Shown here one piece after another: positions 10,159 to 26,952 of a stretch of DNA of 64,000 bases; position 1 is the stretch's first letter; the number at the start of each line of letters is the position of its first letter. The stretch is from Candidatus Kaiserbacteria bacterium CG10_big_fil_rev_8_21_14_0_10_47_16. Its GTDB lineage: Bacteria; Patescibacteriota; Minisyncoccia; Phycocordibacterales; UBA918. The notes below the pieces were generated by a model. It searched no databases, was not told the DNA's origin, and saw nothing but the letters and a program-made list of their open reading frames with translations. The stretch covers positions 335,860 through 399,859 of the forward strand of contig PFBI01000006.1 of the NCBI GenBank assembly GCA_002773395.1, read 5' to 3'. Made by a program: the position numbers and the translations under genes.

Positions 10159-10175
10159 TCACTTTGCACTAAATC

Positions 10176-10212
10176 AAAAGGCCGACAGTTTCACTGTCGG
10201 CCTTTTGATTTG
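10176..10212 (+). terminator. Rho-independent terminator after secY (GGCCGACAG-TTTCA-CTGTCGGCC + TTTTGATTT)
   Basis: 9-bp GC-rich stem followed by a U-tract. Confidence 0.7.
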
Positions 10213-10222
10213 AATCTTCCAT

Positions 10223-10372
10223 GTGCGTCAGGTTTCTAATTCACCACAAGGGTACTTCTTGTTTTCTAATTCGTTACCTCATAAGAAAACAAAGTCGCGC
10301 TGCGCTCATAAGAACCTCCTGCCCAGGCTCGCGGTTTCGGCATTAGGGATAGCCGAAACATCGCTCCGCCTC
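10223..10372 (+). repeat. Intergenic repeat family copy A, with core hairpin TTTCGGC-CATTAGGGATAG-GCCGAAA at about 10335-10358
   Basis: Shares its 5' block (GTGCGTCAGGT..CTAATTC.CCACAAGGG), the CTCGCGG block, the hairpin core and ACATCGCTCCGCCTC tail with copies at 16641-16810, 62977-63101 and 63952-64000 (reverse). Confidence 0.5.
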
Positions 10373-10408
10373 TGAAACACGACATAATCTTCCGCAGGGA
10401 AGATTATG

Positions 10409-10984: not shown

Positions 10985-11058
10985 AATGAAGATACGATAC
11001 CATATTTTCCAGCGTCTGCCGAAAAGGTTTATTTTAATGAAGATTCTGGTAGACTGGG

Positions 11059-11670
11059 GTGGTCATGCAAGCACGCACTATCATATTTATCGGGCCGCAA
11101 GGGAGCGGGAAGGGCACCCAGATTGCCCAGCTCAAAGCGATCATTGAAAAGCTTGATCCGCGGCGACGTGTCGTGGATATCCAGACCGGACGACGGTTCC
11201 GCGCTCTCGCAGCAAAGCAGGAGACCTTCGCGGAGAACAAGATTGCGGATACGCTCAATAACGGTCGTTTGCAGCCGGATTTCCTCACCGCTATTCTGTG
11301 GGGGCAGGCAATGGTTGACCAGCTCGACCCAAAGAGCCATCTTCTCATTGATGGATTCCCACGTAACCTCGACCAGGCACACGAGCTTGAGAGCGCACTC
11401 ACATTTTTTGAACGAGAGACACTCGACATTATCAACCTCGATACTCCAGAAGAAGTCGTCCGCACGCGCATGGAAGAACGTGCCCGAGAAGACGACACTC
11501 CGGAGTCTATCGAAGAACGCCTGCGATGGTTTCGCGAAGAAACCCTCCCTGTTGTGGAATATTACCGAGCACGAGAAAACACAACAGTACACGACATCGA
11601 CGGCACCTCGACCATCGATGAAGTGCACCACGCAGTCGTCAAAACACTTTCCCTAGAACAACACTCATAA
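11059..11670 (+). CDS. adk: Adenylate kinase
   Basis: GPQGSGKGTQ P-loop and LID/NMP-binding layout. Confidence 0.9.
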   Translation: MVMQARTIIFIGPQGSGKGTQIAQLKAIIEKLDPRRRVVDIQTGRRFRALAAKQETFAENKIADTLNNGRLQPDFLTAILWGQAMVDQLDPKSHLLIDGFPRNLDQAHELESALTFFERETLDIINLDTPEEVVRTRMEERAREDDTPESIEERLRWFREETLPVVEYYRARENTTVHDIDGTSTIDEVHHAVVKTLSLEQHS

Positions 11671-12443
11671 TGGCAACAAAGAAAACACCTGCAGAAATCA
11701 AACTCCTTACCAAAGGTGGTTCTATTCTTGCACGCATACTTCGTGAACTCGCTGCAACACTAAAGCCCGGAATGAGTACTGAAGATATTAACGACCTCGC
11801 ACTTGAGCTCGCTGAGAAATACGGGGTGGAACCCGTTCTCCTTGGATACCATCCAACATTTGCTGATCATCCATATCCCGGAGCGCTCTGCGTTTCAGTC
11901 AATGATACGGTGCAACACGGTGTTCCACGAGCTGATGAAATTCTTGCCGAAGGAGATATTGTAAACCTCGACATGTCGATTGGTTACGAAGGAATGATTG
12001 TTGACTCAGGTATTACCGTCGGCGTTGGAGCCATTGATGCTGAGTCGCAGAAGCTCATCGATGTCACACGCGAAGCACTCGTACTCGGTATCAAACAAGC
12101 ACAACCGGGAAATCGTATTGGTGACATCTCACACGCGATTCAAACGTATGTGGAAGCACACGGATTTTCAATCGTTGAAGAACTCTGCGGACACGGTGTT
12201 GGGTATGCAGTACACGAAGATCCACAAATTCCAAACTATGGAAAAGCAGGGAAGGGACCGAAGATTGAAGTGGGACACGTGTACGCAATTGAACCAATTG
12301 TAAATATTGGAAAGAAGGATGTTATCTTCGACGATGATGGTGACGGATACAGTGTATTCACCACTGATGGATCTCGCGCGGCACACTTTGAACATACAGT
12401 CGCTATTACGGAGAAGGGGCCTGTGATCATGACCAAGGAGTAA
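11670..12443 (+). CDS. map: Methionine aminopeptidase type I
   Basis: Pita-bread-fold metal ligands (D, D, H, E, E pattern). The conserved secY-adk-map order is kept. Confidence 0.9.
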   Translation: MATKKTPAEIKLLTKGGSILARILRELAATLKPGMSTEDINDLALELAEKYGVEPVLLGYHPTFADHPYPGALCVSVNDTVQHGVPRADEILAEGDIVNLDMSIGYEGMIVDSGITVGVGAIDAESQKLIDVTREALVLGIKQAQPGNRIGDISHAIQTYVEAHGFSIVEELCGHGVGYAVHEDPQIPNYGKAGKGPKIEVGHVYAIEPIVNIGKKDVIFDDDGDGYSVFTTDGSRAAHFEHTVAITEKGPVIMTKE

Positions 12444-12655
12444 CCATCTCTAAAAATTGGTATCTCCATTGTCGTGCTACAAAAAATAAATCTCACCGTA
12501 CCATTACGTACGCCTCGTTTTATTTTTCTCGCACTTCGCGGATATCCTCAATTTTGAGCGATGCTTAGATGAGACCGTTTTTCCTTGTTATTTCAAGCCG
12601 TTCTGCTATACTGCGCGCATAATTTTGGAGGTAATTTATACATTTTTTAGTTATT

Positions 12656-13261
12656 ATGAATCGAAAACCACATCAGGAACGAACGTTCGTCATCCTCAAG
12701 CCCGACACCGTACAACGCGGTCTCGTAGGAGAAGTTATTAAACGTTTTGAACGCACCGGACTCAAGTTCACTGCCATGAAAATGTTTGTGCCCACAGAAG
12801 CACAGCTCCAAATTCACTACAACAAGGACGAGGAGTGGTTCTTGAAAAAGGGTAATCGTATTATTGAAGATCTAACAGCGCACAATCTTCCCGTTGATAA
12901 AGAACCTATCGAGTACGGTCGCGATATCATCCGAACCATTGTTTCATACATGACTGCAGCTCCTGTTATTGGGGTAGTTCTCGAAGGAAATCAAGCAGTT
13001 GGTGTTGTAACAAAGCTTGTAGGAACAACAGAACCGTCGTCATCAGATGTTGGAACGATCCGCGGTGACTACACTGTCGATTCATATGGTCATTCATCAT
13101 TTGAAAACCGTGCAGTGCGAAACCTCATCCATTGTTCAGAGTCTCCAGAGGAAGCAGAGCGCGAAATTGCACTTTGGTTCACTGAGAACGAAGTTATGGA
13201 CTACGTGACAGCGCAAGAACGCATCATGTACGACGTAAACTTTGACGGGAAGCCTGAGTAA
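12656..13261 (+). CDS. ndk: Nucleoside diphosphate kinase (long form with insertions)
   Basis: ERTFVILKPD N-terminus and an NLIHCSES active-site His region. Confidence 0.8.
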   Translation: MNRKPHQERTFVILKPDTVQRGLVGEVIKRFERTGLKFTAMKMFVPTEAQLQIHYNKDEEWFLKKGNRIIEDLTAHNLPVDKEPIEYGRDIIRTIVSYMTAAPVIGVVLEGNQAVGVVTKLVGTTEPSSSDVGTIRGDYTVDSYGHSSFENRAVRNLIHCSESPEEAEREIALWFTENEVMDYVTAQERIMYDVNFDGKPE

Positions 13262-13280
13262 TCAAACGAGCGTGTAAGCC

Positions 13281-13316
13281 AAAAATTGCAGTGTCTTCCG
13301 ACACTGCAATTTTTTG
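13281..13316 (+). terminator. Rho-independent terminator after ndk (TTGCAGTGTC-TTCC-GACACTGCAA + T7)
   Basis: 10-bp stem followed by a U-tract. Confidence 0.65.
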
Positions 13317-13549
13317 ATATACTGTATCTGGAACCGCATATCGTATGTTCCGGTTACATTTGCAACGGGCTGCCTGCAATCGCAAGGAGTAATGAGAATC
13401 AAAGCGATTTTCAGACACGAATTGGAAAGGGTGCCCACCTAGAGCTTACACCTAGGAGCATGCGTTTGTGGTTCCACAATAGGTCGTAGGGTGACGCGTT
13501 GCCCTGCGTTTTTTTGTACCTGAAGAGCGTGGTACACTATTTTCATCAT

Positions 13550-13930
13550 ATGCGCCCACTTACTTTTTTACTTCTCACCAGTGCTTCGATACTGGCTGTA
13601 TCACACTTTTTTGCGCTGCACTTCTATCTGTACTGGATTTATCTTTGGCTTGATATACCAATGCACATACTTGGGGGAGTCACCGTTGCGCTCGTATTTT
13701 TTGTCATTGATGACTATGCTATTCCATACGTTCCACGCGTCCGTCGATTTCTTCCATTTATTCTTGCCGTCTTTGCAGTGGGACTGCTCTGGGAATACTT
13801 TGAGGTATGGGCCGGTGTCGCTACACAGCCTAACTACTGGCAGGACACGATTGGAGACCTCGTCATGGACCTCGTTGGAGGAAGCATCGGATACATCGTC
13901 GCCACCCGCATACGAACATTAGAGGTATAA
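13550..13930 (+). CDS. Hypothetical polytopic membrane protein (possibly VanZ-like)
   Basis: Four hydrophobic helices. The track ORF starts at 13499; the likely start is the internal Met at 13550. Confidence 0.45.
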   Translation: MRPLTFLLLTSASILAVSHFFALHFYLYWIYLWLDIPMHILGGVTVALVFFVIDDYAIPYVPRVRRFLPFILAVFAVGLLWEYFEVWAGVATQPNYWQDTIGDLVMDLVGGSIGYIVATRIRTLEV

Positions 13931-13937
13931 AATTTAT

Positions 13938-15296
13938 ATGGCATCACTTGGTTTTTATGGGGGAGTCGGACAGGTAACGGGGGCAAACTTTCTTCTTAAT
14001 ACTGACGGGGCACAATTTCTTATCGACTGCGGTCTCATACAGGGAAGTCGATTTGCTGCGGCCGAAAATTGCGAGGCATTTGCATACAGTCCAAAAGATA
14101 TTGACGCTCTTTTTATAACGCACGCACACGCCGACCACATTGGTCGCATTCCAAAACTCGTTGCTGATGGATTCACCGGAAAGATTTATACGACTGACGC
14201 AACAAAAGATCTTGCGGCCGTCATGCTTCGTGACGCGTACACGGTGATGACATACGAGGCTGATAGATACGGGTCACCGCGGTGCTACGAGATGAAAGAT
14301 GTCACCGCAGCAATCGCACTCTTTAGTGGCGTTTCGTATAACGAACCGATCGCACTAAAAGATGATGTGACGGCGGTCTTCACGAACGCTGGTCACATCC
14401 TCGGTTCTGCGTTTGTAACGTTCACCCGCAAAGGGCGATCATGCGTATTCTCTGGTGACATTGGGAACGTCCCACAACCTCTCCTCGATGCACCAACGAT
14501 TCCGACCGGATACAATTACCTCGTTATGGAGAGTGTGTATGGAGATCGACTCCACGAACAAGTAGCAGAACGAAACGATCTCTTAAAACACTACATTGTC
14601 GAGACACAGAAGAAAGGCGGCACACTCATCATTCCCGCATTCTCTCTCGAACGTACGCAAGGAATGCTTTTTGAAATTAATAACTTTGTTGAAAAAGGTG
14701 AAATCAAACCGCTTCCGGTATTCCTCGATTCACCACTTGCGATTAATGTCACCGGACTCTACCGAACGCACACCGACTACATGAAAAAGGCGGTGCAGGA
14801 ACAGATCAAAGGCGGAGATGATATCTTTGCATTCGATGGACTCTCATTCACGCACACCGTAAAGGACTCCGAGGAAATCAAACGTGAGAAGGGAGCAAAA
14901 ATTATTATCGCCGGAAGTGGCATGAGTCATGGCGGACGCATTCTTGGACACGAGCGACACTTCCTCGAAGACAAGAAAACAACACTCCTTCTTGTGGGGT
15001 ACCAATCAGTCGGGACACTCGGGCGACTCCTGAATGACGGTGCAAAGCGTGTAAAGATTGATGGGGAAGACGTACGGGTACGGGCGCAGATTGCACGCAT
15101 CTCTGGCTACTCAGGTCATGCTGACCGTGACCAACTGATCGACTTTGTAGCGCAAGGTGGAGAAAACGTCGAGAAAGTATTTGTCACTATGGGAGAAGAA
15201 CGTGCATCACTCTTTCTTGTCCAACGCCTTCGTGAGTACTTAGATGCCCCCGCAGTGATACCGAGTCTGGGGGATGTAGTACCAATTAACTTCTAA
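13938..15296 (+). CDS. MBL-fold metallo-hydrolase with a beta-CASP domain (RNase J/CPSF-like RNA-metabolising nuclease)
   Basis: HAHADH motif and a beta-CASP layout over about 450 aa. Confidence 0.75.
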   Translation: MASLGFYGGVGQVTGANFLLNTDGAQFLIDCGLIQGSRFAAAENCEAFAYSPKDIDALFITHAHADHIGRIPKLVADGFTGKIYTTDATKDLAAVMLRDAYTVMTYEADRYGSPRCYEMKDVTAAIALFSGVSYNEPIALKDDVTAVFTNAGHILGSAFVTFTRKGRSCVFSGDIGNVPQPLLDAPTIPTGYNYLVMESVYGDRLHEQVAERNDLLKHYIVETQKKGGTLIIPAFSLERTQGMLFEINNFVEKGEIKPLPVFLDSPLAINVTGLYRTHTDYMKKAVQEQIKGGDDIFAFDGLSFTHTVKDSEEIKREKGAKIIIAGSGMSHGGRILGHERHFLEDKKTTLLLVGYQSVGTLGRLLNDGAKRVKIDGEDVRVRAQIARISGYSGHADRDQLIDFVAQGGENVEKVFVTMGEERASLFLVQRLREYLDAPAVIPSLGDVVPINF

Positions 15297-15333
15297 TACA
15301 AAAAGCCCGTGACGGAGTCACGGGCTTTTTGTA
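15297..15333. terminator. Bidirectional terminator (AGCCCGTGAC-GGA-GTCACGGGCT flanked by A- and T-runs) between the convergent MBL nuclease gene and rplT
   Basis: Perfect 10-bp stem with AAAA upstream and TTTTT downstream. Confidence 0.65.
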
Positions 15334-15343
15334 TGAGTGTTCT

Positions 15344-15688
15344 TTACTTAACCTTTGCAAGGATGCGTTCGAACGCTTCTGGGCGTTGATCCGCAATTGC
15401 TGCAAGCATCTTTCGATTGAGTGCAACTTCTTGTGCGGCAAGTGTCTTGATGAAAAGACTGTACTTGAGTCCGTGCGCGCGGAGTGCTGCACTGAGGCGA
15501 ACAATCCAAAGCTGACGGAATACGTTCTTTTTATCTTTACGGTGAGCAAACGCATGCGACTGTGCATGGTAGATTGCTTCGCGTGCAGCTCGCTTCTTGG
15601 TAGAGCGTGCGTGACGATATCCTTTTGTTTCTTCGAGGATGTTTTTGCGGCGGCGATTGGCGACCACTCCTCCTTTTACTCGTGACAT
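15344..15688 (-). CDS. rplT: 50S ribosomal protein L20
   Basis: L20 family sequence (RVKGGVVANRRRKNILEETKGYRHARS...). Confidence 0.9.
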   Translation of the reverse strand: MSRVKGGVVANRRRKNILEETKGYRHARSTKKRAAREAIYHAQSHAFAHRKDKKNVFRQLWIVRLSAALRAHGLKYSLFIKTLAAQEVALNRKMLAAIADQRPEAFERILAKVK

Positions 15689-15732
15689 AGTGCGTTATTA
15701 TTCAATCAAATGTGTAACTTCAAATAGTGCTT

Positions 15733-15924
15733 TTACGCGCCACTCTTTGGAAGAAAACGACGAGTAATCCTCTTTGAGAGTGAAATGTTTTGTGTACGCT
15801 TTCGTGCAAGGTGCTTCGAACCTGATTCTTTTGCATTAAAGTGGTTTTGCCCAGCCTTACGTGCAATAATCTTGCCGTTCTTTGTTACCTTGAGACGTTT
15901 GGTATATGACTTGTTTGTTTTCAT
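15733..15924 (-). CDS. rpmI: 50S ribosomal protein L35
   Basis: 63 aa basic protein MKTNKSYTKRLKVTKNGKIIARK..., positioned between infC and rplT. Confidence 0.9.
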   Translation of the reverse strand: MKTNKSYTKRLKVTKNGKIIARKAGQNHFNAKESGSKHLARKRTQNISLSKRITRRFLPKSGA

Positions 15925-15927
15925 AAA

Positions 15928-16488
15928 CTATTCCTTAGAATTTTCTGTTGGTTGTGTTGGTTCTGCTTTTTGTTTACCAACTCTCTCGAGTGTGGTGGTG
16001 AATCCTTTCGGACTTCGTTTGATCTCGTCAGCAATCTTGTACTCAGCGGGGACTAATTTCAAGAATCGCTCGAGTCGTTCTTTAAGGAAGCCTTCTTCCA
16101 TGTACTTGTAGCGTCCCCAGAGGAAGAGGTCGATTTTAACTCGATGTCCTTCTTCGAGCCACGCGGCCACTCGCTTTGCTTTGAGTGTTAAGTCATGGTC
16201 ACCAGTACCGATTTTTACCTGTATCCCCTTGGTTTCGGTAACGTGTGACTTGGCCTTTACTTCCTTCGCTCTTTTCTTCTGTTCGTACTGGTACTTACCG
16301 TAGTCCATTATCTTCGCAACGGGAGGCTTGGCGTTGGGAGAAATTTCGATAAGATCGAGATTTGCTTCTTCAGCCATTGCGAGTGCGTCGGATGTAGAGA
16401 TAACCCCAACATTCTCGCCGGCCGCGCCAATGACGCGCAGCTCCGATGCTCTGATTGCTTTGTTAATACGGATTCGTGTGTCTTTCAA
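15928..16488 (-). CDS. infC: Translation initiation factor IF-3 (non-AUG start: TTG at 16486-16488 or the in-frame ATC just upstream)
   Basis: IF3 N- and C-domains, at the head of the infC-rpmI-rplT operon. There is an in-frame stop 6 codons upstream and no ATG available. Confidence 0.9.
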   Translation of the reverse strand: MKDTRIRINKAIRASELRVIGAAGENVGVISTSDALAMAEEANLDLIEISPNAKPPVAKIMDYGKYQYEQKKRAKEVKAKSHVTETKGIQVKIGTGDHDLTLKAKRVAAWLEEGHRVKIDLFLWGRYKYMEEGFLKERLERFLKLVPAEYKIADEIKRSPKGFTTTLERVGKQKAEPTQPTENSKE

Positions 16489-16599
16489 GATGAAAAGCCT
16501 TATTTAAAGAGAGCCCGAGCGAACTCAAGCTCTCTGGAATACAGCGCAAATATACTATATATGTGGCGGAAAGGCAAGGGTGGGGGGGCTTCGTGCAGG

Positions 16600-17030: not shown

Positions 17031-18503
17031 ATGATCGTACGGTCTGATATTCCAAAAGAAGTACAGCTTGTCGCCGACACGCTTGAGAAAGCTGGGTTTG
17101 AAGCCTACCTCGTCGGTGGGTGTGTTCGTGACATGCTTATTGGTCGCACTCCGAAGGATTGGGACATCACAACCAACGCAAAACCTGAGGAAGTAACAGC
17201 TCTTTTTGAGGAAACATACAATAATAATGACTTTGGGACCGTTGGTGTCGTGAATCTAGAAACAGAGGATGAGAGCGTCCGTGTCGTCGAAGTAACGCCG
17301 TATCGCAGTGAATCTGGCTATTCTGACGCACGTCGTCCTGACACCGTCACCTTTGGTGTATCGCTTGAAGAAGACCTCGCGCGACGAGACTTCACCATCA
17401 ACGCCATCGCATTTCGCCTTAAGGATGAGCAAACGGTTGATATATTTGACGGGAGTGCTGATATCGCAGCAAAGCGCCTGACTGCAGTAGGGAACGCAGC
17501 GGAACGCTTTGGGGAAGATGCCCTCCGCATGCTCCGCGCAGTACGACTCAGTGTTGAACTCGATTTTGTTATCGAATCAGAAACAATGACTGCCATTGCC
17601 GAAAAGGGCTCCAACTTGAGCCTTATTTCAAAAGAACGCATCCGCGATGAGTTCTCACGAATCTTAAAGTCTTCGCAGCCAATGCAGGGCCTTATTCTCT
17701 GTGAAAAGCTTGGTTTACTTGCATATATTATGCCGGATCTCCTTCGTGGTATCGGTGTGGAACAAAACCAAGCCCACAGCTTCGACGTCTACGAACACAA
17801 CCTACGCACTATGCAACACGGCGCTGACAAAGAATGGGATTTTGATATCCGCCTCGCGGGACTCCTCCACGATATTTCAAAACCAGAGACACGAAAGTGG
17901 AGTAAGGAGAAGAACGACTGGACCTTCCACGGCCACGAGGTTGTCGGCGCACGAGTCGCAAAAAAGATCATGACGGATCTGAAGTTCCCGAAAGAGAAGA
18001 TCGCGCGTATCACTAAACTCGTCCGCTGGCACATGTTCTTTTCAGACCCTGATTTGATTACCCTTTCTGCGGTACGACGTATGATTCGCAACGTAGGGGA
18101 GGAGAATATCTGGGACCTGCTCAACCTCCGCATTTGTGACCGTATTGGTACTGGGCGGCCAAAGGAGCAGCCATTCCGCTTCCGCAAGTACAAATCAATG
18201 GTTGAAGAGGCGCTTAGAGATCCTATCTCAGTGAAGATGCTCAAGATTGACGGCGCTCGTATTATGGAAATAAGTAGTGAGAAACCAGGACCAAAGCTCG
18301 GAGACACCCTCCACGCACTCCTTGAGGAAGTACTCGACGACCCACAGAAGAACACCGCTGAATACCTAGAGGGACGCGCGCAAGAACTCATGGCGATGGA
18401 TGCAGCAGAACTAAGGAAGCTCGGTGATGCAGGGAAAGATAGACGAGAAGGGGAGGAAGCTGGCGAAATCCAGAAACTCCGCCGAAAACACAAAGTTGTA
18501 TAA
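17031..18503 (+). CDS. cca: CCA-adding tRNA nucleotidyltransferase with HD domain
   Basis: Pol-beta-type NT motif GGCVRD...DxD and an HD motif (LLHDISKP) in the C-terminal half. Confidence 0.85.
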   Translation: MIVRSDIPKEVQLVADTLEKAGFEAYLVGGCVRDMLIGRTPKDWDITTNAKPEEVTALFEETYNNNDFGTVGVVNLETEDESVRVVEVTPYRSESGYSDARRPDTVTFGVSLEEDLARRDFTINAIAFRLKDEQTVDIFDGSADIAAKRLTAVGNAAERFGEDALRMLRAVRLSVELDFVIESETMTAIAEKGSNLSLISKERIRDEFSRILKSSQPMQGLILCEKLGLLAYIMPDLLRGIGVEQNQAHSFDVYEHNLRTMQHGADKEWDFDIRLAGLLHDISKPETRKWSKEKNDWTFHGHEVVGARVAKKIMTDLKFPKEKIARITKLVRWHMFFSDPDLITLSAVRRMIRNVGEENIWDLLNLRICDRIGTGRPKEQPFRFRKYKSMVEEALRDPISVKMLKIDGARIMEISSEKPGPKLGDTLHALLEEVLDDPQKNTAEYLEGRAQELMAMDAAELRKLGDAGKDRREGEEAGEIQKLRRKHKVV

Positions 18504-18536
18504 GAAAAGACCGAGCCTATAGGCTCGGTCTTTTCT
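18503..18536 (+). terminator. Rho-independent terminator after cca (GACCGAGCC-TATA-GGCTCGGTC + T-tract)
   Basis: 9-bp stem followed by TTTTCTT. Confidence 0.65.
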
Positions 18537-18574
18537 TATGTATATAAACCTACGCTTGGCACTGAGATAGAAAA

Positions 18575-18649
18575 AAGCCCGCAGGGTTCGAAGGTCGAAT
18601 GGAATGTCCTTTACATGTCCTTTATTCGATTCCCGAACCCTGCGGGCTT
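18575..18649. repeat. Long perfect 16-bp stem (AAGCCCGCAGGGTTCG / CGAACCCTGCGGGCTT) enclosing a roughly 43-nt loop with tandem TGTCCTTTAC / TGTCCTTTAT copies
   Basis: Read directly; A- and T-runs flank the stem. Confidence 0.5.
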
Positions 18650-19008
18650 ATTTATGGGTGATCTACATAAGTATGTATTACTTATTTTTTGGCACGAGAT
18701 GTGCTGAATGAACTGTGAGTCGACGCGGGACGGAGTCCCTATAGGCCGAAGCGCATTGTGGCTCCGTCCGTGGGGTGGCGACTCATACTTTTTAGATGAT
18801 ACATATGTGAACCATCTAATAGTGGGATGTGAGTTATTTTGGAGGTTAACTCAATATTTTTGAACGAACTGTTTAGGGGGACATCCCCGCCTGCCCTCTC
18901 TGGGCCTGCGTATATAGTATGTCCTTTACAACAACGCGTAAAGGACAATCGTGTGCATAACTGTGTATAACATGTCCTTTATAAAAGACATGTCTTTTTG
19001 TGGCCTAT

Positions 19009-19806
19009 TTACTCGTCGATTGCGAGCTCAATAGATACGGGGCAGTGGTCACTTCCGGTCACTTCCGGGTGGATGTCAGCTTTTTTTATGATTGAGACCA
19101 GTGCTTCGGATGCGAGGATGTAATCAATTCTCCATCCTACGTTTCGCTCGCGTGCACCACCCCAGTGTGACCACCATGTGTAGAAACCATTCCCTTTGTG
19201 AAACAGTCTGAAGGTATCGACAAATCCGCCGTCCACAAATGCATCGAACCCTGCACGTTCTTCATCGGTAAATCCTTTCTTCCCCTTGTTCTCTTTCGGG
19301 CGGGCGAGGTCATCTTCTGTGTGTGCCACGTTGTAGTCACCGCAGTGAATGACTGGTTTCTCAGATTCAAGACGTTTCATGTACTCAAAGAATGCAGGAT
19401 CCCATTGCTGCCGCATTGGAATACGTGACAGATCGTCCTTTGCGTTTGGTGTATATACCGTTACCACGTAGAAATGTTCGAATTCGAGGGCTAATACACG
19501 ACCTTCTTTGATTGTGTCACCATATCCATCAGAGAGTTGATACTTCTCAATAAGATCTTCCGGGAAACCGTGCATTACGTTTTCAGGGGCTTGTTTGGTG
19601 AATATTGCCGTTCCTGAGTATCCTTTACGGTCTGCAGAGTTCCAGTATTCATCGTAATCCGGTAAATCAATCTCTACCTGATCTTGGTTTGCCTTCGTCT
19701 CTTGGAGACAAAGAATGTCTGGCTGATGCTTCTCGATGAAGGGAAGGAGCTCTTCTTTTTTCAAAACTGCACGAATACCGTTTACGTTCCACGAATAGAT
19801 TTTCAT
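19009..19806 (-). CDS. xth: Exodeoxyribonuclease III (AP endonuclease)
   Basis: EEP-fold motifs (WNVNG, LQE, GDxN, SDHxP). The track ORF extends to 19842; the likely start is the Met at 19806. Confidence 0.85.
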   Translation of the reverse strand: MKIYSWNVNGIRAVLKKEELLPFIEKHQPDILCLQETKANQDQVEIDLPDYDEYWNSADRKGYSGTAIFTKQAPENVMHGFPEDLIEKYQLSDGYGDTIKEGRVLALEFEHFYVVTVYTPNAKDDLSRIPMRQQWDPAFFEYMKRLESEKPVIHCGDYNVAHTEDDLARPKENKGKKGFTDEERAGFDAFVDGGFVDTFRLFHKGNGFYTWWSHWGGARERNVGWRIDYILASEALVSIIKKADIHPEVTGSDHCPVSIELAIDE

Positions 19807-19995
19807 CTTGATAGTATACCCGTGAAACGTTGCAGTGAACAAACCCTTGCATTTTTACACACATATGCTTTAATTGTCGCAACAAAGCGGCACTCCTCCT
19901 CTGAGAGTTCTCACAAAGAAGTAGATCAGGTGCGGGTAAGTTTTGTGGCAGATGGTGTTATATCCAATGCTCTTATTCACTAAGAACAAAGAACA

Positions 19996-20199
19996 ATGAC
20001 AGGCAAGATTGCACGTCTTACAGATCGCGGATTCGGATTCATTACTCCGGACGGCGACGATAAGGATGTGTTCTTCCACGCTCGTTCACTTTCTGAAGGT
20101 CTTCTCTACGATGACCTAAAGGAAGGCGAGGCAGTTACGTTTGATCTTGAGAATGGTCCAAAAGGCCCTTCTGCAGCAAACGTAGCTCGACCAGCGTAA
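19996..20199 (+). CDS. cspA: Cold-shock protein (CspA family)
   Basis: RNP1/RNP2 motifs (GFGFI, VFFH). A long 5' UTR follows the TTGCAT promoter-like site. Confidence 0.9.
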   Translation: MTGKIARLTDRGFGFITPDGDDKDVFFHARSLSEGLLYDDLKEGEAVTFDLENGPKGPSAANVARPA

Positions 20200-20599: not shown

Positions 20600-21523
20600 T
20601 TAGTTCGAGTGGAACTTTTTATGCACTTCTCGGAGGTGTTTGTCGGTTACGTGTGTATATATCTGTGTTGTCGCAATATTTGCATGCCCCAACAGCGCTT
20701 GCACAGAGCGCAGGTCGGCGCCGTTTGAGAGGAGGTCTGTCGCAAAACTGTGACGGATAACGTGCGGCGTTACCTTGCGGGTAATTCCTGCAATAGTGGC
20801 GTACCGTTTAATGATGCGCTGTACGCTTCGTGGTGTCAGTCGTAAATCTTTATTGTCTTTTTGTGTCATCTTTGCGTTCTTCCCATACTGAATAAAGAGT
20901 GCGTCATCCATATCCTTTCGTGACTTCACGTATTCACGAATTGACTGTTTTGCTTTGTCAGAGAGAAAGACCACGCGAATTTTATCACCCTTCCCGCGTA
21001 TAGAGAACTCATCACGTGAGAGATCAACATCTTCAATAGAGAGGCCGCAGAGCTCCGAGACGCGGAGCCCGGTTGAAAACAAGAGCTCAAGAATGGCTTT
21101 ATCGCGCAGTCCTTGCTCGGTAGCACGATCGGGCGCATTCATAAGACGGCTGAGTTCTGCAGGAGAAATAAGGTCGAGTGACCGTTCAGGAACCTTCGCC
21201 AACTCAATACGTTCTGGATCGAGCGAGGAAATGTTCCGTTTTCGGAGATATTTCAGAAAGGCGCGGAGCGCAATCAGGTAGTAATTCTGTGTTCGTCGCT
21301 TCAACGTATCGGTTGTTCTTCCCGTTTTTGTCCCCGGCTGACGATTGAGCCACAGGCGGTACTCACGCACCATGCTTTCAGTAACTTTTTTTGGGTCAGT
21401 TACTTTTGCGTAGTCCAAAAAACGGGTGAGGTATCGATCATAGTTTGATACGGTATGAATACTTCGTCCACGCTCAATTTCGAGGTATTCCAAAAATTGT
21501 TGTTTTGCTTCCGCGAGGTTCAT
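20600..21523 (-). CDS. Tyrosine recombinase XerC/XerD family
   Basis: C-terminal catalytic R...HxxR...Y signature (HVIRHSFAT...LGHANIATTQIYTHV). The likely start is the MNLAEAK Met, since the track ORF extends 30 nt further. Confidence 0.85.
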   Translation of the reverse strand: MNLAEAKQQFLEYLEIERGRSIHTVSNYDRYLTRFLDYAKVTDPKKVTESMVREYRLWLNRQPGTKTGRTTDTLKRRTQNYYLIALRAFLKYLRKRNISSLDPERIELAKVPERSLDLISPAELSRLMNAPDRATEQGLRDKAILELLFSTGLRVSELCGLSIEDVDLSRDEFSIRGKGDKIRVVFLSDKAKQSIREYVKSRKDMDDALFIQYGKNAKMTQKDNKDLRLTPRSVQRIIKRYATIAGITRKVTPHVIRHSFATDLLSNGADLRSVQALLGHANIATTQIYTHVTDKHLREVHKKFHSN

Positions 21524-21613
21524 ATATAGCAGTATTGTAGCACTCCATTCCACAGCAACTGCACCGCTGCACTCGCTGTGTAACGTATACTATATATGTA
21601 ACAAACACACGTC

Positions 21614-22492
21614 GTGAGTAGTCGTATTCGTATTGGAGTAGCACTGGTAGTTGGAGTCGTCATCATCGGCGGGGCCTTTTATCTACGCGGACAAACAGAA
21701 GTATTGCCCACAGGAATTCTCTCTGTTTCTGGCAGCCCTACTCGCGGGTCTATTGCCGAGACCGACAAAAACAACAACGGTATCAACGACTGGGAGGAGT
21801 CATTGCAAACTCTCACCATCAACTCTGCATCGAAAACCGGCACCGCGATCGCGGCAGGCGGTGACTACGAGCCTAAAACGTTGACCGATCGTTTTGCTCA
21901 AAAGTTTTTTGAAGAATATACAACCTCAGACGCAAGCGGTTCCTCCGACCCAGCTGCGCAGCAGGCCTTTTTAAATTCTTCTATCGCACAGCTCAGCGGG
22001 GAAGCGTTGGACACACCCTACACACAAAAAGATATTCGTATCGGCGATTCTTCACCACAAGCCCTGCGCGATTACGGAAATAATATTTCAGACATTGTGA
22101 ATCGTTACTCGGGTGCGAGTACAGAAAACGAACTTACCGTATTTGCCCGTGTCATCGACAATGACAATGCGAAAGATTACCAAACACTTACAAACATCAG
22201 TACCGCATATAGCAAGGTTCTTGCTGATACACTGGTACTAGCGGTACCACCCGAACTTGCTTCTTCGCATCTCCTTCTTGTGAATGCGTATCTTGCTGTT
22301 CAGGCCGATGTCGCCGCAATGGCAAATGCAAAAACTGACCCACTCTACGCTCTCGTACGTGTAAAGCGATACGAGGAAGACGCCAAAGCGCTGTACGCCG
22401 TTTTCAATACCATATATTCGTACCTCTACTCAAGTGGCGTACGATACGCGAGCGATGAACCGGGATCAATATTCCAAGTAGCAGGGAACTAG
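21614..22492 (+). CDS. Hypothetical membrane-anchored secreted protein (first gene of the T4SS-like operon)
   Basis: N-terminal TM (IGVALVVGVVIIGGAFYL) followed by a hydrophilic domain. No known family. Confidence 0.55.
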   Translation: MSSRIRIGVALVVGVVIIGGAFYLRGQTEVLPTGILSVSGSPTRGSIAETDKNNNGINDWEESLQTLTINSASKTGTAIAAGGDYEPKTLTDRFAQKFFEEYTTSDASGSSDPAAQQAFLNSSIAQLSGEALDTPYTQKDIRIGDSSPQALRDYGNNISDIVNRYSGASTENELTVFARVIDNDNAKDYQTLTNISTAYSKVLADTLVLAVPPELASSHLLLVNAYLAVQADVAAMANAKTDPLYALVRVKRYEEDAKALYAVFNTIYSYLYSSGVRYASDEPGSIFQVAGN

Positions 22493-22498
22493 CACACT

Positions 22499-23881
22499 AT
22501 GACGGACACAACACCAACACAAAAAAACAGGTGGTCTCTCGCACGATATGCCGTTACCTTGGTTCTTATTTTGTCTTTTGCTGCGGCTCCACTTTCAATA
22601 ACATCCTCGCTCCATATACAAAAACAAGAAGCTGCTGCGCAGTGGTCGGTACTTGATGCCGCCAACCTTGTGAAGAACACGTTCGTTGCCGCAATCCAAA
22701 ATTCACTTCAAGTAAAGGAGTTCTCTCTCGACGCGATTGCATACGCACTTGCGAAGCAGGCAATTCAATCAATGACGACGAGTATTGTGCAGTGGATTAA
22801 CTCCGGCTTTAAGGGGAGTCCTGCCTTCGTCCAAAACCTCGAGTTCCATTTAAACTATCTGGCCGACCGTGTGGCGTCTGAATTCTTCTCTGAGCTCGGA
22901 GGTGGATTTCTCTGTGCGCCATTCCAACTCAATGTGCGTGCTGCAATTTCTTTGCAGTACAACAATAATAAATACTACAAGAACCGCGGACAGTGCAGCC
23001 TCTCAAGCGTCGCTGCAAATATTGAAAACTTTGGTAAGGCGGGCGTCACCTCAAGTTGGGGGAACTTCATGCAAGTGGCAATGTACCCACAAAACAATCC
23101 GTACGGATCAATGGCACTCGCACAACAGGAACTGACCCTCCGTATTGTGAACGCGCGCAATCAGGAAGTTGAACTTCTTAGTTTCGGTGACGGATTCCTT
23201 TCGTACCGCGATACAGAGGACGCATGGTGTATAGGACAACCGGTTGAGAAGTGTCCTGTTATAACACCGGGGAAGGTTATCTCTGAACAGCTCAACAAAT
23301 CGCTTGGCGCAGGTCAGGATGTATTGGTAAGTGCCGACGAAATCAACGAAATAATCGGTGCACTCTTTGCGCAACTCACGACACAAGCTATCACCGGAGT
23401 AAACGGACTCCTCGGGGTTTCTTCAGGCCAGAACGGTAGTCAATCGTATCTCAATCAGGTAAACAGTGACAAAACGAAAGTAGGATACGACGCTTCAAGT
23501 TACACAAACGTGACTCAAACCCTTCAAACCGAACAGACCTTCCTCAGTCTCAACGAACAAATTGTGACCACAATAAATGGCGCTGCGACGCTTTCGTGTT
23601 CACAGTCACTCCCAACAAGTCTTGTGACTGCACGATCAACTGCATCGGCTGCGGTCACCAGCACTCGCACAAACGTTTCTCGCCTTGAAGGGTTCCAGAG
23701 TCAATTAAGCGGAACGTCAAATTCTAAGGAACAAGAAACGATCTTCTCACAGTTCCAAGCATTTGCATCATCTGGAGTACTTCATTCACCAGCTACCGTT
23801 ACAAGTCTCCAGAATACGGTCGATAGTATTACTGCTGCAGTCACCAGTTACGAGGCGTCATACTGTAAAACAACTCCATAA
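22499..23881 (+). CDS. Hypothetical membrane-anchored secreted protein, Cys-containing
   Basis: N-terminal TM and a 430-aa extracytoplasmic domain. It starts 7 nt after the previous gene. Confidence 0.55.
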   Translation: MTDTTPTQKNRWSLARYAVTLVLILSFAAAPLSITSSLHIQKQEAAAQWSVLDAANLVKNTFVAAIQNSLQVKEFSLDAIAYALAKQAIQSMTTSIVQWINSGFKGSPAFVQNLEFHLNYLADRVASEFFSELGGGFLCAPFQLNVRAAISLQYNNNKYYKNRGQCSLSSVAANIENFGKAGVTSSWGNFMQVAMYPQNNPYGSMALAQQELTLRIVNARNQEVELLSFGDGFLSYRDTEDAWCIGQPVEKCPVITPGKVISEQLNKSLGAGQDVLVSADEINEIIGALFAQLTTQAITGVNGLLGVSSGQNGSQSYLNQVNSDKTKVGYDASSYTNVTQTLQTEQTFLSLNEQIVTTINGAATLSCSQSLPTSLVTARSTASAAVTSTRTNVSRLEGFQSQLSGTSNSKEQETIFSQFQAFASSGVLHSPATVTSLQNTVDSITAAVTSYEASYCKTTP

Positions 23882-23883
23882 GT

Positions 23884-25971
23884 ATGTTCTCTTTTGCTCA
23901 CAACAAAAAACATCTCCTCATAGCTGCTCTTTTTGTGTGTTCACTTGCATTCACGGCGTTGAGCGCCCCCCAATACGCACATGCACAAACACCTGCCGCA
24001 CAACCCGCGGCAACCACTGGAACTGCCGCAACTCCAACAGCAACTGCACCCGCTGCAGCTACCACTGAGAGCCCAAAAGAGACAGGGGGAGGGGTAGGGA
24101 GTTTCCTTGGGAACCTCGTACTCAGTCTCGGTGGTGCTATCGCCGGTCTTGGCGGATGGCTTCTTGATGGAGCGATTGATAAGTTTGTCATCCACATTGC
24201 CGACGGCCTTCATGCAAACGAACCTCTCGGCAAGGCGATCTCAACACTCTGGACCGTCGTGCGCGACATAGTGAACCTCGTATTCATTTTCGGGTTTGTG
24301 TACATTGGTATTCGCACCATCATCGATCCGAGTCGAGCACAAACAAAGTCCTTCCTCTCGCAACTCGTTGTTGCTGCACTCCTCGTCAACTTTAGTCTCT
24401 TCTTTGTAAAGTTTGTGATCGATATCGCAAATGTCACCTCGCTCGAAATTTATAATCTTATTGGGGGTGGGCAGGGGAATATCGCGGCGCAGTTTGCGGC
24501 GCATGTTGGCGTGCCCGACTGGTTTACAGCAAAAGACCCTGAGCAACTTGCACAACTTTCTGGCGAAACCGCCCTTGTCTACTACATTATGGCAGCCCTC
24601 TTCCTCATCATTGCCGGATTCACCTTTGCTGCTGGTGCATTCCTCCTCGTCTCCCGCTACATCGTGCTCATTCTCCTCATGATTTTTTCACCGCTTATCT
24701 TTGCGGCAATGGTGTTCCCACAACTCGGAAAAATCGGAGGCGGCCTCATGGGAAGACTCATCAACTATGCCTTCATGGCGCCCGCCTATCTTTTCTTACT
24801 CTATCTCTCACTCTCAGTGGTTGTCGCAGCGAGCCCTAGTAAGGCAACAAGTATTCGTGATGTCTTCGCAGGAGGTATCAATGGCTCGAGTACCAATGGT
24901 GATATTTCAATCATTCTCGTCTTCTTTATTGGTATTGGACTGCTCATCGCTTCACTCCAAGCCGCAAAGGCGCTTGGGGTCGCCGGATCCCAACAAACAC
25001 TTAAGTTTGGGAATTATCTTCGTGGACAAGCCCAAAGCTTTGTTGGTAGAAACACTGTAGGTCGTGCCGGCGACATGGCTTTGAAAGCGTATGAAAAGGT
25101 GGACGCAAAAGCGACGAGTTCGAAGACTGGGCGATTCCTTCGCGGAGCCGTTTCTGTTGCATCTGTTGGTGTCCTGAGTGACCGAAGTGTCCGCACAGGT
25201 CTGCAAAAAACTTCTGGCGCGAAATTCGGTGGGACAACTTCGTTTACTGACGCTAAAAAGTATGATGAGGATCTCAGTAAACGACGCTCTGGTCTGCGCG
25301 CTGAGATGCAACGCGAAAAAGATATTGAAAAAGGTATTGGTCTTGCGAATACTGATCTTAGTAAACTTTCTGAAGATGAGAAGAAAGTCCATTCAGAGGA
25401 CATGCAAAAGATGGTTGATGCCATTGAGGATCTTACTGCAGACCAAATGAAAGACCTCGAGCTCAACATTCTTACAAATGAGGATGTGGCTGTGCACCTT
25501 TCAATGAAACAAATTGAAGGTCTTGAAAAGACTGGTAAGTACTCTGACGCTCAAATTGAAAGTATTAAGGACGCCAAGAAAGCTGGTACACGTGCCATTG
25601 CGCTCAACACAAACGGTCGCGGTGAAATGAAGGTTGGTGGCCGAACGCAGCAAGAGCGACTGGTAAAGCAAAATGTAAACGACGTTGGCGCTCTCCATGT
25701 TTCAATCTTCAAAGCTCGCGATATGGCAAGATACCTTACTCCGGCAATGGTTGAGGCTCGCATGCAGCGTGGCATCACTGAACAAGATCTCTTTGATCCG
25801 AATGAGAAGGACCCTGACCAAGTGGGTATCCGGCAAAGTCTTAATACGTACCTCAATGATACCGACACCCCACAGAGTGTTATTCAGCAGTGGGCTAAGT
25901 GGAAAGAGAAGTCACCGGTATACGCAGCGCGCCTTAATCTCGACATTCCTGACTCCTCAACGAATAATTAG
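23884..25971 (+). CDS. VirB6/TrbL-like polytopic membrane protein with a signal peptide, Thr/Ala/Pro-rich linker and a C-terminal coiled-coil cytoplasmic domain
   Basis: Signal peptide, at least 6 hydrophobic helices, 695 aa, and a position next to PrgI/VirB4 genes. The assignment rests on topology and context, not motif identity. Confidence 0.45.
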   Translation: MFSFAHNKKHLLIAALFVCSLAFTALSAPQYAHAQTPAAQPAATTGTAATPTATAPAAATTESPKETGGGVGSFLGNLVLSLGGAIAGLGGWLLDGAIDKFVIHIADGLHANEPLGKAISTLWTVVRDIVNLVFIFGFVYIGIRTIIDPSRAQTKSFLSQLVVAALLVNFSLFFVKFVIDIANVTSLEIYNLIGGGQGNIAAQFAAHVGVPDWFTAKDPEQLAQLSGETALVYYIMAALFLIIAGFTFAAGAFLLVSRYIVLILLMIFSPLIFAAMVFPQLGKIGGGLMGRLINYAFMAPAYLFLLYLSLSVVVAASPSKATSIRDVFAGGINGSSTNGDISIILVFFIGIGLLIASLQAAKALGVAGSQQTLKFGNYLRGQAQSFVGRNTVGRAGDMALKAYEKVDAKATSSKTGRFLRGAVSVASVGVLSDRSVRTGLQKTSGAKFGGTTSFTDAKKYDEDLSKRRSGLRAEMQREKDIEKGIGLANTDLSKLSEDEKKVHSEDMQKMVDAIEDLTADQMKDLELNILTNEDVAVHLSMKQIEGLEKTGKYSDAQIESIKDAKKAGTRAIALNTNGRGEMKVGGRTQQERLVKQNVNDVGALHVSIFKARDMARYLTPAMVEARMQRGITEQDLFDPNEKDPDQVGIRQSLNTYLNDTDTPQSVIQQWAKWKEKSPVYAARLNLDIPDSSTNN

Positions 25972-25980
25972 TATCGGCAT

Positions 25981-26451
25981 ATGAATTCAAATTGGGATAC
26001 CTTTCAAGAAAAATATAGAGCGGCTCCACCGCACATTCAGAATATTATAGATTCTGATGTGATCTTACTTTTCGTGAGAAAAATTAAATCCGCATGCGAT
26101 TTGCCTGTTCTAAAAACAGACGACCTAATAATTCTAGTCAGTGACTGTGTACTTGGAATACAAAAACCTGAAGAGCTTTTTAACTCGGAGATTTTTGCAG
26201 CCGTCTCGGCAGAGAAGCGGGGGAAGGTGATTGATATGATTAACGATTTTGTAAAAAATCCTCCAAGTGTGCCTACCTCCGCTGCAGATCCTGTGGAAAT
26301 TGCACCTGTTGCAGCACTGGATCAAGATTCTGCGAATGTCACTCAAAGTGAACCTCCAAAGACTCCTTCGCCTGGACCTACTCAGCTGCCGCAGCGGTAC
26401 ATGAAGCCGCTCACTGAGATGCCGCGATATGACGATAAGGGTCGGCGGTAG
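25981..26451 (+). CDS. Hypothetical cytoplasmic protein
   Basis: ORF in the operon with no TM segments and a Pro-rich C-terminus. Confidence 0.5.
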   Translation: MNSNWDTFQEKYRAAPPHIQNIIDSDVILLFVRKIKSACDLPVLKTDDLIILVSDCVLGIQKPEELFNSEIFAAVSAEKRGKVIDMINDFVKNPPSVPTSAADPVEIAPVAALDQDSANVTQSEPPKTPSPGPTQLPQRYMKPLTEMPRYDDKGRR

Positions 26452-26515
26452 TCTCTCGAGAATCTTTCAACGTCGTCACTTCAGATTTCTGGTTCGACTG
26501 TTGTACAATGGATGA

Positions 26516-26947
26516 ATGCGCTTTGAGGTACCACAGTTTATTGAAATCGAAGACAAGATCATTGGCCCATTCACGTGGAAGCAATTCATTTATATTGCTG
26601 GCGGTGGGGGAGCGGTACTTGTGTTGTATTTCACCCTTCCGTTTATACTCTTCGCCATACTTGGTGTTCCGATTGCGGCACTTGCGGGCTTCCTCGCATT
26701 CCACAAAATAAACAATCGGCCCTTCTCAGTCTTCCTTGAATCAATGGTAAGCTATTTTATGGGGAACAAGCTGTACCTATGGAAGAAAAAACAAGGTCAA
26801 ATCATTACCGCAGAGAAGACGCTCTATAAAAGTCCTGTTGCAGAAGCTCCAACATCATCACCTGTTCCAGGGAATGACAATATTTCTTCACTTGCGCGCA
26901 AGCTTGAGATGAATGCACTTGAGAACCCTACCCCTGACCAACAATAA
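26516..26947 (+). CDS. PrgI-family (VirB3-like) small membrane protein of Gram-positive-type T4SS
   Basis: The N-terminal DKIIGPFTWKQFIYIAGG motif resembles the PrgI family signature (KIFGPLTLRQFIYL). Two TM helices, and it lies directly upstream of VirB4. Confidence 0.6.
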   Translation: MRFEVPQFIEIEDKIIGPFTWKQFIYIAGGGGAVLVLYFTLPFILFAILGVPIAALAGFLAFHKINNRPFSVFLESMVSYFMGNKLYLWKKKQGQIITAEKTLYKSPVAEAPTSSPVPGNDNISSLARKLEMNALENPTPDQQ

Positions 26948-26952
26948 CTACT

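Follow-up and report, generated by a model that had tools for sequence, protein, structure and literature searches.

The element considered here lies in a 64-kb stretch of the genome of Candidatus Kaiserbacteria bacterium CG10_big_fil_rev_8_21_14_0_10_47_16 (contig PFBI01000006.1). This stretch, referred to below as the window, includes a ribosomal-protein/SecY block and genes for IF3, a CCA-adding enzyme (CCA), an ExoIII-family nuclease (Exo), a Xer-like recombinase, type IV secretion system (T4SS)-like proteins, rnpA-yidC, dnaA-dnaN, a PilB-type ATPase, and PolA. The CCA gene (17031–18503, + strand; assigned with Pfam), which has its own terminator at 18509–18535, and the Exo gene (19009–19842, − strand; PF03372), which is syntenic in 73 of 80 related loci, converge on a 500-bp spacer (18504–19008). 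This spacer holds the main clusters of a recurrent 10-nt word, ATGTCCTTTA, including two sites that we term O1 and O2, along with tandem DnaA boxes between these sites and a predicted RNA gene read from the minus strand, convergent with CCA. The first-pass annotation of this DNA, which had singled out the word as over-represented, did not mention the DnaA boxes next to it, the RNA gene lying between two of its clusters, or the convergence of the flanking genes. On the evidence presented below, ATGTCCTTTA is probably the half-site of an operator for a putative lineage-specific protein that binds double-stranded DNA (dsDNA), most likely a repressor acting with DnaA.

The distribution of the word was determined in the window and in two sets of related loci. 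One set comprises 80 loci around the CCA gene (865 kb, or 929 kb with the window added), and the other comprises 80 loci centred on dnaA (866 kb) from metagenomic genomes that are equally related to the source. The closest homologues of the CCA-adding enzyme, with 64–76% protein identity, come from metagenome-assembled genomes of Candidatus Kaiserbacteria and Paceibacteria (Parcubacteria, Patescibacteria).

In the window, the pattern TGTCCTTTAY has eight exact matches (positions 1701, 1722, 5194, 18605, 18616, 18920 on the plus strand, 18938 on the minus strand, and 18973), compared with 0.23 expected, and none of 100 dinucleotide-preserving shuffles yielded as many as eight. The over-representation noted earlier is thus borne out, as are the positions of the copies, save that the last occupies 18973–18982 and had been placed one base to the right (18974–18983). 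The conserved form ATGTCCTTTA has seven exact copies, more than any other 10-mer in the window. The copies fall into four clusters (1700–1730, 5193–5202, 18604–18624, and 18919–18999), the last of which consists of an inverted pair, one more copy, and two degenerate half-sites. Further 9-mers that recur often in the window (TTATTGAAA, GTACACAAA, and CAAAGAGTG) are dispersed and have unrelated flanks, and codon usage is the probable cause of their abundance.

Among the relatives, the CCA-centred loci contain 155 occurrences of ATGTCCTTTA, and the 9-mer TGTCCTTTA occurs 342 times in these loci plus the window, where ~7 occurrences are expected. This 9-mer is found only once in the dnaA-centred loci, compared with 6.6 expected, and its one-mismatch variants occur there at the chance level (178 versus 185 expected). 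No copy is present in 63 kb of DNA from the source genome outside the motif island (the window from 19 to 64 kb, with 8.5 kb of left flank and 9.8 kb of right flank). Within the CCA-centred loci, 188 of 334 copies are in the CCA-Exo spacer, 67 are in the CCA gene, 52 flank a UPF0102 gene, and 27 are elsewhere, such that 307 copies occupy four syntenic places. Although open reading frames of at least 80 codons make up 81% of the DNA in these loci and the window, 72% of the motif copies lie outside them. In relatives represented by longer contigs, every copy is contained in a neighbourhood of ~5.5 kb with the order Exo, RNA, CCA, tRNA, UPF0102, NUDIX/CorA, and hydrolase, and each genome has ~8–12 sites. 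At these syntenic positions, the word is conserved letter for letter in dozens of Kaiserbacteria and Paceibacteria genomes whose proteins are only 64–76% identical.

This distribution bears directly on the proposal of the first-pass annotation that the word could be a DNA uptake sequence that biases natural transformation. The word does resemble the DNA uptake sequences (DUS) of Neisseria and the uptake signal sequences (USS) of Haemophilus in being an exact sequence of 9–10 bp, some copies of which are paired in inverse orientation within hairpins. Genes for type IV pilus and T4SS-like functions are indeed present in the window, as had been stated, including those for the PilB-type ATPase (44705–46411) and for PrgI and a VirB4/TraG-like ATPase (26516–29411). 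Furthermore, yraN (UPF0102), one of the genes flanked by the motif, serves transformation in other bacteria, where its product is an endonuclease with relaxed site specificity needed to resolve the transformation D-loop (bioRxiv 10.1101/2024.02.06.579203). Known uptake sequences, however, are dispersed and occur about once per kb, whereas the word has a density of 1 per 8 kb even in the window and is at or below chance frequency beyond one small neighbourhood. The genome-wide excess that an uptake signal calls for is therefore lacking in the DNA sampled. The word is also not restricted to the window, since it recurs in relatives at fixed, syntenic, mostly intergenic positions, and these positions are linked to a promoter and maintained across deep divergence. 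Such behaviour is the opposite of that of a dispersed tag undergoing rapid, lineage-specific turnover, and we consider a role in DNA uptake to be barely credible.

Alignment of the flanks of 340 copies reveals information only at positions −2 to +10. Neighbouring copies have preferred spacings, which are 9 and 19 bp for inverted copies, 23–24 and 44–45 bp for everted copies, and 12, 24, and 41 bp for direct copies. Inverted pairs (9 or 18–19 bp) number 31, everted pairs (22–25 bp) number 30, and direct pairs (11–12 bp) number 20. A repeat of the repetitive extragenic palindrome (REP) or miniature inverted-repeat transposable element (MITE) type was rejected on the basis of the flank alignment and the synteny of the copies. 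A dif site is built of two arms of ~11 bp around a 6–8-bp centre and occurs once per replicon. The spacers of 0 or 10 bp and the many copies per genome do not conform to this plan, and a Xer/dif site was rejected despite the nearby Xer-like gene. An origin in phages or plasmids was likewise set aside, as the palindrome pattern has 23 matches with scattered spacings in a viral collection, a number that in our judgement is roughly what chance would give.

The best-conserved copies coincide with a promoter. In the window, O1 (18919–18948) is formed by the inverted half-sites ATGTCCTTTA (18919–18928, +) and TTGTCCTTTA (18939–18948, −), which are separated by 10 bp and lie over the −35 box and spacer of a promoter on the minus strand. 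The −35 hexamer TTTACG (18937–18942) is located within the distal half-site, and the −10 hexamer TACTAT (18914–18919), which follows after a 17-nt spacer, shares its first T with the last base of the proximal half-site. In 25 loci where the promoter could be aligned with the motif, the consensus on the RNA strand is TTATnCACA-g-TTATnCACA-ngn-aTGTCCTTTACa-N8-TAAAGGACAT-ActaTa-N5-AGGCCCAGAAA, wherein the conserved RNA 5′ end AGGCCC begins 7 nt past the −10 box. The −35 hexamer is TTTACA in most relatives and TTGACG in two, the motif in two loci having been altered to TGTCCTTGA, which produces this better −35 box. A promoter scan identified TTTACA-17-TACTAT as the sole promoter-like site in the spacers of two relatives (L005 and L016).

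The pattern of conservation in O1 indicates what is being preserved. Its two half-sites are exact in 23 and 17 of the 25 loci, and the 10 bp between them are nearly free of information. Moreover, in eight loci one arm deviates from the consensus, and in none of them has the other arm changed to restore pairing. Because the half-sites are retained, the spacer is free, and changes in the arms are uncompensated, it is the word that appears to be under selection and not a hairpin. The 10-bp inverted repeat at 18919–18948 is present as described earlier, where it was grouped with terminator-like hairpins. It has no U-run and is upstream of the predicted RNA start, and therefore it is not an intrinsic terminator. 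We instead assign it as a promoter operator, whereas a second hairpin described earlier, which contains a tandem copy, proved to be a real terminator (see below).

O2 (18972–18999) is composed of the abutting inverted half-sites ATGTCCTTTA and TAAAAGACAT (18972–18991), together with a degenerate third half-site, ATGTCTTTTT (18990–18999). The abutting pair reads ATGTCCTTTATAAAAGACAT in the window and ATGTCCTTTATAAAGGACAT in relatives. The degenerate third half-site generates the perfect palindrome AAAAGACATGTCTTTT (18984–18999), which is as the first-pass annotation described it, and the Exo gene ends 10 bp from O2. Among 19 loci, the distance between the centres of O1 and O2 changes in steps of ~10.5 bp. 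It is 36.5–37 bp in four loci, which have one DnaA box between the operators, and 47–48 bp (two loci), 57–58 bp (10 loci), 60 bp (one locus), or 79 bp (two loci) where two DnaA boxes intervene. Quantised spacing of this kind is the signature of proteins that face each other while bound to dsDNA, and it would have no meaning if the word served as an uptake tag or an RNA element.

A hairpin has been built around O2 in some lineages. In seven relatives (L001, L003, L005, L010, L016, L018, and L073), O2 is the centre of a palindrome of 40–46 bp whose outer arms vary among the genomes but remain complementary, and the palindrome of L005 (7957–7998) scores as terminator-like on the plus strand. This observation, along with the tandem copy in a genuine terminator hairpin, would be expected if the copies were selected as RNA or DNA hairpins (terminators or REP/MITE-like elements) and not as a word that is bound by a protein. 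Structure-only elements drift in sequence, whereas this word is invariant. Lone copies and direct repeats are common, the flanks share no sequence of the kind that a mobile repeat would have, and the terminator tips of relatives lack the motif. When the uncompensated arm changes of O1 and its location upstream of the RNA start are also taken into account, selection for hairpins seems very improbable.

The same promoter overlap might be explained by a positive element, such as a site for a pho-box/WalR-type activator or an extended −35 element for an alternative sigma factor, which would strengthen a weak −35 box or stand in for it. The motif does contain TTTACA, the −35 hexamer of the RNA promoter, and in two relatives (L077 and L080) a motif copy is near the −35 position of a purB-like gene. 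Also consistent with this idea are the resemblance of the tandem 11-bp direct repeat TGTCCT-N5-TGTCCT to boxes of the OmpR/PhoB family and the presence of a gene for an extracytoplasmic function (ECF)-type sigma factor just downstream of the hydrolase copies. However, there is no −10-like signal at a constant distance from the 340 copies, and perfect palindromes (O2) and inverted pairs predominate. The ECF-type sigma gene is preceded by a conserved promoter of its own, TGAAAGA-N15-CGTC, with no likeness to the motif, and for this reason, as well as the lack of a −10 signal after the motif, the sigma factor was rejected as the reader of the word. In addition, the proximal half-site of O1 borders directly on the −10 box, a position at which an activator and RNA polymerase would clash. 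We therefore consider a positive promoter element to be distinctly unlikely.

Downstream of this promoter, the interval from 18907 to ~18571 on the minus strand is treated here as a predicted, unannotated structured RNA gene of ~335 nt (18571–18907), whose predicted start is the A at 18907 (AGGCCCAG...). From the CCA-Exo spacers of 20 genomes, we derived a model in which a 5′ hairpin (AGGCCCAGAAAGGGC) is followed by a variable hairpin, the conserved stretch CCCUUAAAGAG, and a hairpin with the loop UAAUACCUCCAAAA. The 3′ part consists of a GAGUC...GGGAC...GUCCC...GACUC domain, then a terminal hairpin that is long and has two tiers, and a U-run. The loop UAAUACCUCCAAAA (UAACCUCCAAAA in the window) is invariant and anti-Shine-Dalgarno-like. 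The 5′ hairpin AGGCCCAGAAAGGGCGAGCAGG loosely resembles the helix 8 motif of signal recognition particle RNA (AGG, a GNRA loop, and AGCA), although it is positioned at the extreme 5′ end.

The predicted structure is well supported by comparative analysis. Its 30 base pairs are formed in 95.8% of the alignment cells, and 20 pairs carry changes on both sides, compared with 8.7 ± 1.7 in shuffled alignments, none of which (0 of 500) reached this value. All measures of covariation collapse when the pairing partners are shifted by 1–3 columns. One pair is G·U in 17 of the 20 sequences and other pairs are U·G, a pattern that would correspond to A·C or C·A on the opposite strand, and thus the RNA is most consistent with transcription from the minus strand. 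The window sequence folds with a free energy of −114.7 kcal/mol (z = −8.4). When the 5′ domain was searched for as a profile, each genome had exactly one copy, which was invariably in the CCA-Exo spacer, and the dnaA-centred loci had none. Neither the window nor the RNA region of 17 relatives yielded a match to Rfam 15 (at the gathering score or with E ≤ 10), ARAGORN predicted no tRNA or transfer-messenger RNA in the RNA region, and a literature search on structured RNAs in Parcubacteria returned nothing relevant. The covariation, the single copy per genome, and the lack of Rfam or ARAGORN matches are the grounds on which we treat this RNA as an unannotated gene.

The predicted RNA ends in a terminator hairpin (18575–18650, −), which has an 18-bp outer stem and a 6-bp inner stem and precedes a U-run (free energy −45.5 kcal/mol, z = −7.9). 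The first-pass annotation had recognised this hairpin, in which it placed the tandem motif pair, but had given its stem as 16 bp. The stem covaries in relatives, and the structure has the characteristics of an intrinsic terminator. The tandem copies (18604–18613 and 18615–18624, 11 bp apart) are located in its apical part. In the aligned relatives, the tip is instead an inner stem of the form GCCGA...TCGGC without the motif, indicating that the tandem copy is specific to the source genome.

DnaA boxes are associated with the motif. Between O1 and O2 are tandem boxes TTATGCACA (18952–18960, −) and TTATACACA (18962–18970, −), corresponding to positions ~−45 to −63 of the RNA promoter. These are retained in relatives as TTATnCACAgTTATnCACA, often in the perfect form TTATCCACA. 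The DnaA-box pattern TTATNCACA has nine matches in the window, compared with 2.25 expected, and four of these are beside the motif. In the CCA-centred loci and the window together, 80 of 132 DnaA boxes are within 40 bp of a motif copy.

The association recurs in a second module (5193–5228, +), where ATGTCCTTTA (5193–5202) overlaps a DnaA box, TTATGCACA (5200–5208), by three bases and another box is present at 5220–5228. Degenerate motif copies are found at 5178–5187 and 5131–5140. This module is ~190 bp upstream of the yraN/UPF0102 gene (4579–5007, −; PF02021), which in relatives has motif copies at its flanks more consistently than any other gene, with 32 copies upstream and 20 downstream in 49 loci. 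The upstream arrangement takes the form TTAAGGACA-N17-19-TGTCCTTTATACACA in 25 loci, at ~140–215 bp from the UPF0102 start codon, and a further DnaA box often follows. Downstream of UPF0102, an everted motif pair precedes tRNA genes in many relatives. Composites of motif and DnaA box (TGTCCTTTATACACA) number 51 in the CCA-centred loci, compared with a single one in the dnaA-centred loci.

These sites do not resemble a replication origin, because each has only two DnaA boxes and the motif is absent from the flanks of dnaA. The likely oriC of this genome is the dnaA-dnaN spacer (36396–36714; the interval 34810–35012 was also noted), where many DnaA-box-like 9-mers accompany an AT-rich stretch. 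Cumulative GC skew is lowest at 36–38 kb. A composite with one mismatch is present in the dnaA-dnaN spacer (36495–36510), and a link between the motif and oriC was considered on this basis. It was rejected, as both the motif and the composite occur at chance frequency in the 80 dnaA-centred loci.

Copies of the word also occur inside coding sequences, and their conservation there points to constraint on the DNA. The two hydrolase copies (1700–1709 and 1721–1730, +; 21 bp apart) are inside an alpha/beta-hydrolase gene (1537–2154, −), wherein the coding strand reads xTA AAG GAC ATx and twice encodes (V/I)KDI. In hydrolase homologues with 58–84% identity, the same codons carry exact or one-mismatch copies. 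Likewise, in one subclade the CCA gene uses xxT AAA GGA CAx to encode (S/A/D)-K-G-(Q/H) in 15 of 15 loci, and adjacent synonymous positions are free to vary. This fixation at synonymous positions indicates that the in-gene copies are maintained at the DNA level.

Retention of copies within genes is also compatible with a regional array bound by a chromosome-organising or partition-related protein, similar to parS/ParB, the ram sites of RacA, or the DnaA-binding loci datA and DARS (DnaA-reactivating sequences), in which case control of transcription would be a side effect. Sites of the parS type are commonly located inside coding genes. Six parS-like palindromes TGTTNCANNTGNAACA (0–1 mismatch) are present at 4446–5109 in and beside the UPF0102 gene, compared with 0.21 expected, and in relatives such sites are beside UPF0102 and within the CCA gene. 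This cluster, ~30 kb from dnaA, is probably the centromere region of the chromosome. It shares with extra DnaA boxes the ~5.5-kb neighbourhood that contains all motif copies, and the island as a whole is 17–30 kb from oriC. The motif copies are found in every orientation and are helically phased, as might be expected of an array. On the other hand, the copies with the strongest conservation lie precisely on the −35 box and spacer of a promoter, the number of sites per genome is small, no partition or condensin-loading gene was seen beside the sites, and the motif is missing from oriC and the dnaA flanks. We judge it unlikely that such an array is the primary function of the word.

Taken together, these features are best accounted for by an operator, given that the half-site sequence is conserved, the core promoter is overlapped, and the sites are on the same helical face. 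From this geometry, and by analogy with paired operators and DnaA-regulated promoters, we infer that a protein binds the word, that it represses, and that DnaA participates. The O1 half-sites cover the −35 box and spacer of what would be a sigma-70-type promoter driving the minus-strand RNA. Because O1 extends over the −35 box and as far as the margin of the −10 box, a protein bound there should keep RNA polymerase out. The helical phase of O2 is fixed, which suggests that the protein on O1 may be stabilised through contact with protein on O2, on the same helix face and one to two DnaA boxes further out. DnaA bound between the operators, where it would abut the −35 box, could modulate the system by helping or hindering either this contact or the polymerase. 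RNA output would then follow both the signal sensed by the regulator and the status of the replication initiator. The same protein presumably occupies the other sites around yraN/UPF0102, in the CCA and hydrolase genes, and, in the source genome only, at the tip of the RNA terminator. The suggestion of the first-pass annotation that the copies are operators is therefore favoured, but they do not appear to be sites of a global regulator, as they are confined to one neighbourhood of ~5.5 kb.

Several points weigh against this interpretation. The half-sites are found in inverted, everted, and direct orientations and also within coding genes, which is atypical of a simple dimeric repressor, and these mixed arrangements fit an array-forming or monomer-binding protein equally well. 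The promoter in the window (TTTACG/TACTAT) matches the consensus hexamers at eight of 12 positions, which is just below the cut-off of the promoter scan, and it was not reported by the scan. The RNA gene is a prediction made from sequence, and the sign of the regulation is read from the position of O1 relative to the promoter. No gene for a helix-turn-helix (HTH) or other DNA-binding protein is consistently adjacent across the loci examined. Finally, the related sequence sampled amounts to ~1.9 Mb around two anchor genes, and more sites may exist elsewhere in the genome.

Two proteins encoded near the motif were considered as its binder and rejected. YraN/UPF0102 is an endonuclease that acts on single-stranded DNA or by nicking, with relaxed site specificity, and is a likelier target of the regulator than the regulator itself. 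A 118-aa HTH protein encoded beside Exo in one relative (L170) is conserved in no other locus. Literature searches for the motif word returned only primers, and those for DnaA boxes in Patescibacteria returned nothing relevant.

The putative repressor sites can be compared with several established systems. As in the paired cooperative operators of lambda CI (OR/OL), LacI (O1-O2), and LexA (SOS boxes), the half-sites are conserved and the spacer between them is free, and one site is on the −35/−10 region while the second is upstream at phased distances. They differ from these operators in that half-sites also occur in everted and direct arrangements and in coding genes, and in that the protein is putative. 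To our knowledge, the word is like none of the published operator consensuses with which it was compared. The LexA box of Patescibacteria is reportedly of the Gram-positive GAAC-N4-GTTC type, and LexA was set aside because this motif differs from the word.

The promoters of dnaA, nrdAB, and sda are controlled by DnaA. Like B. subtilis sda and the DnaA-box clusters of that species, and like E. coli dnaA, nrdAB, datA, and DARS with their IHF/Fis sites, the promoter described here has tandem consensus DnaA boxes directly upstream and away from oriC, and these boxes are conserved together with candidate sites for a second protein. In contrast to those systems, each site has no more than one or two boxes, its partner sites do not resemble those of IHF or Fis, and the product is a predicted noncoding RNA. 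The comparison does not extend to DnaA titration or nucleotide exchange. A short, asymmetric box that begins with TGTC and abuts or overlaps DnaA boxes is also reminiscent of response regulators such as Spo0A (0A-box, TGTCGAA), CtrA, MtrA, and HP1021. Those proteins act at oriC, whereas the present motif is absent from oriC and the dnaA flanks and no response-regulator gene is linked to it. The Pho box and the sites of WalR and CpxR (OmpR-PhoB family) are similar to the tandem copy in the window, an 11-bp direct repeat TGTCCTTTAyA, and to the contribution of the motif to the −35 region, yet inverted and abutting palindromes are the commonest arrangements here and the proximal half-site extends to the −10 box.

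The element works like a classical cooperating operator pair to which DnaA boxes have been added, and no named regulon among those tested matches it. Tests for DUS/USS, oriC, REP/MITE, and dif all failed, and the predicted RNA is outside Rfam. It is best placed among transcription-factor operators, and its analysis led to an undescribed predicted RNA gene.

A broader proposal, for now no more than a tentative and rather doubtful one, is that a lineage-specific factor and DnaA might jointly gate a conserved RNA with the loop UAAUACCUCCAAAA, as well as a few DNA- and RNA-repair genes including yraN. The RNA would then be a signal of replication status that damps translation or recombination in these genome-reduced bacteria, and the array near parS might shape the local chromosome. 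Gene regulation is almost undescribed in Patescibacteria, members of the candidate phyla radiation that cannot be grown alone. A concrete conserved cis-regulatory module, consisting of a 9–10-bp word, a promoter, non-origin DnaA boxes, and a new predicted structured RNA, could provide the bait for a first lineage-specific regulator and a handle on how replication might be coupled to other processes in these tiny cells. DnaA boxes at the promoter of a noncoding RNA are unusual. The results also remove the tempting idea that DNA in these bacteria is marked by uptake sequences.

Several other features of the region were recorded. In two relatives (L169 and L170), UPF0102 and CCA are separated by only ~1 kb, whereas in the source genome a block of ~12 kb (5351–16500) lies between them, carrying genes for a membrane protein, S8-L6-L18-S5-L15-SecY-Adk-Map, NDK, an RNase J-like protein, and IF3. 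A rearrangement has therefore split the motif island. On the other side of the spacer, a gene for a small cold-shock-domain protein (19996–20199, +) is located between Exo and the Xer-like recombinase gene (20600–21553) and overlaps a spurious opposite-strand open reading frame. Twelve plus-strand open reading frames follow beside the recombinase gene (21614–33473), of which only those for PrgI and the VirB4/TraG-like ATPase have Pfam matches. They form a T4SS-like cluster of proteins mostly without Pfam matches, which in L169 and L170 is not beside Xer. The genes at 21.6–33.5 kb are all on the plus strand and would hence be oriented head-on to a fork from the oriC candidate.

Two promoter-like arrangements were also observed. 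At ~1470–1525 (−) in the window, and in L168, L169, and L170, a conserved block TGAAAGA-N15-CGTCTTCGCTTATAATGG is directly upstream of the ECF-type sigma gene and of the DUF5667 gene that comes after it. It resembles an ECF autoregulatory promoter joined to a TATAAT box, and the start is almost leaderless. In L077 (~4130–4170, −) and L080 (~4160–4200, −), the single motif copy near the −35 position is just upstream of TATACT-N6-ATG of the purB-like gene, whose mRNA is apparently leaderless.

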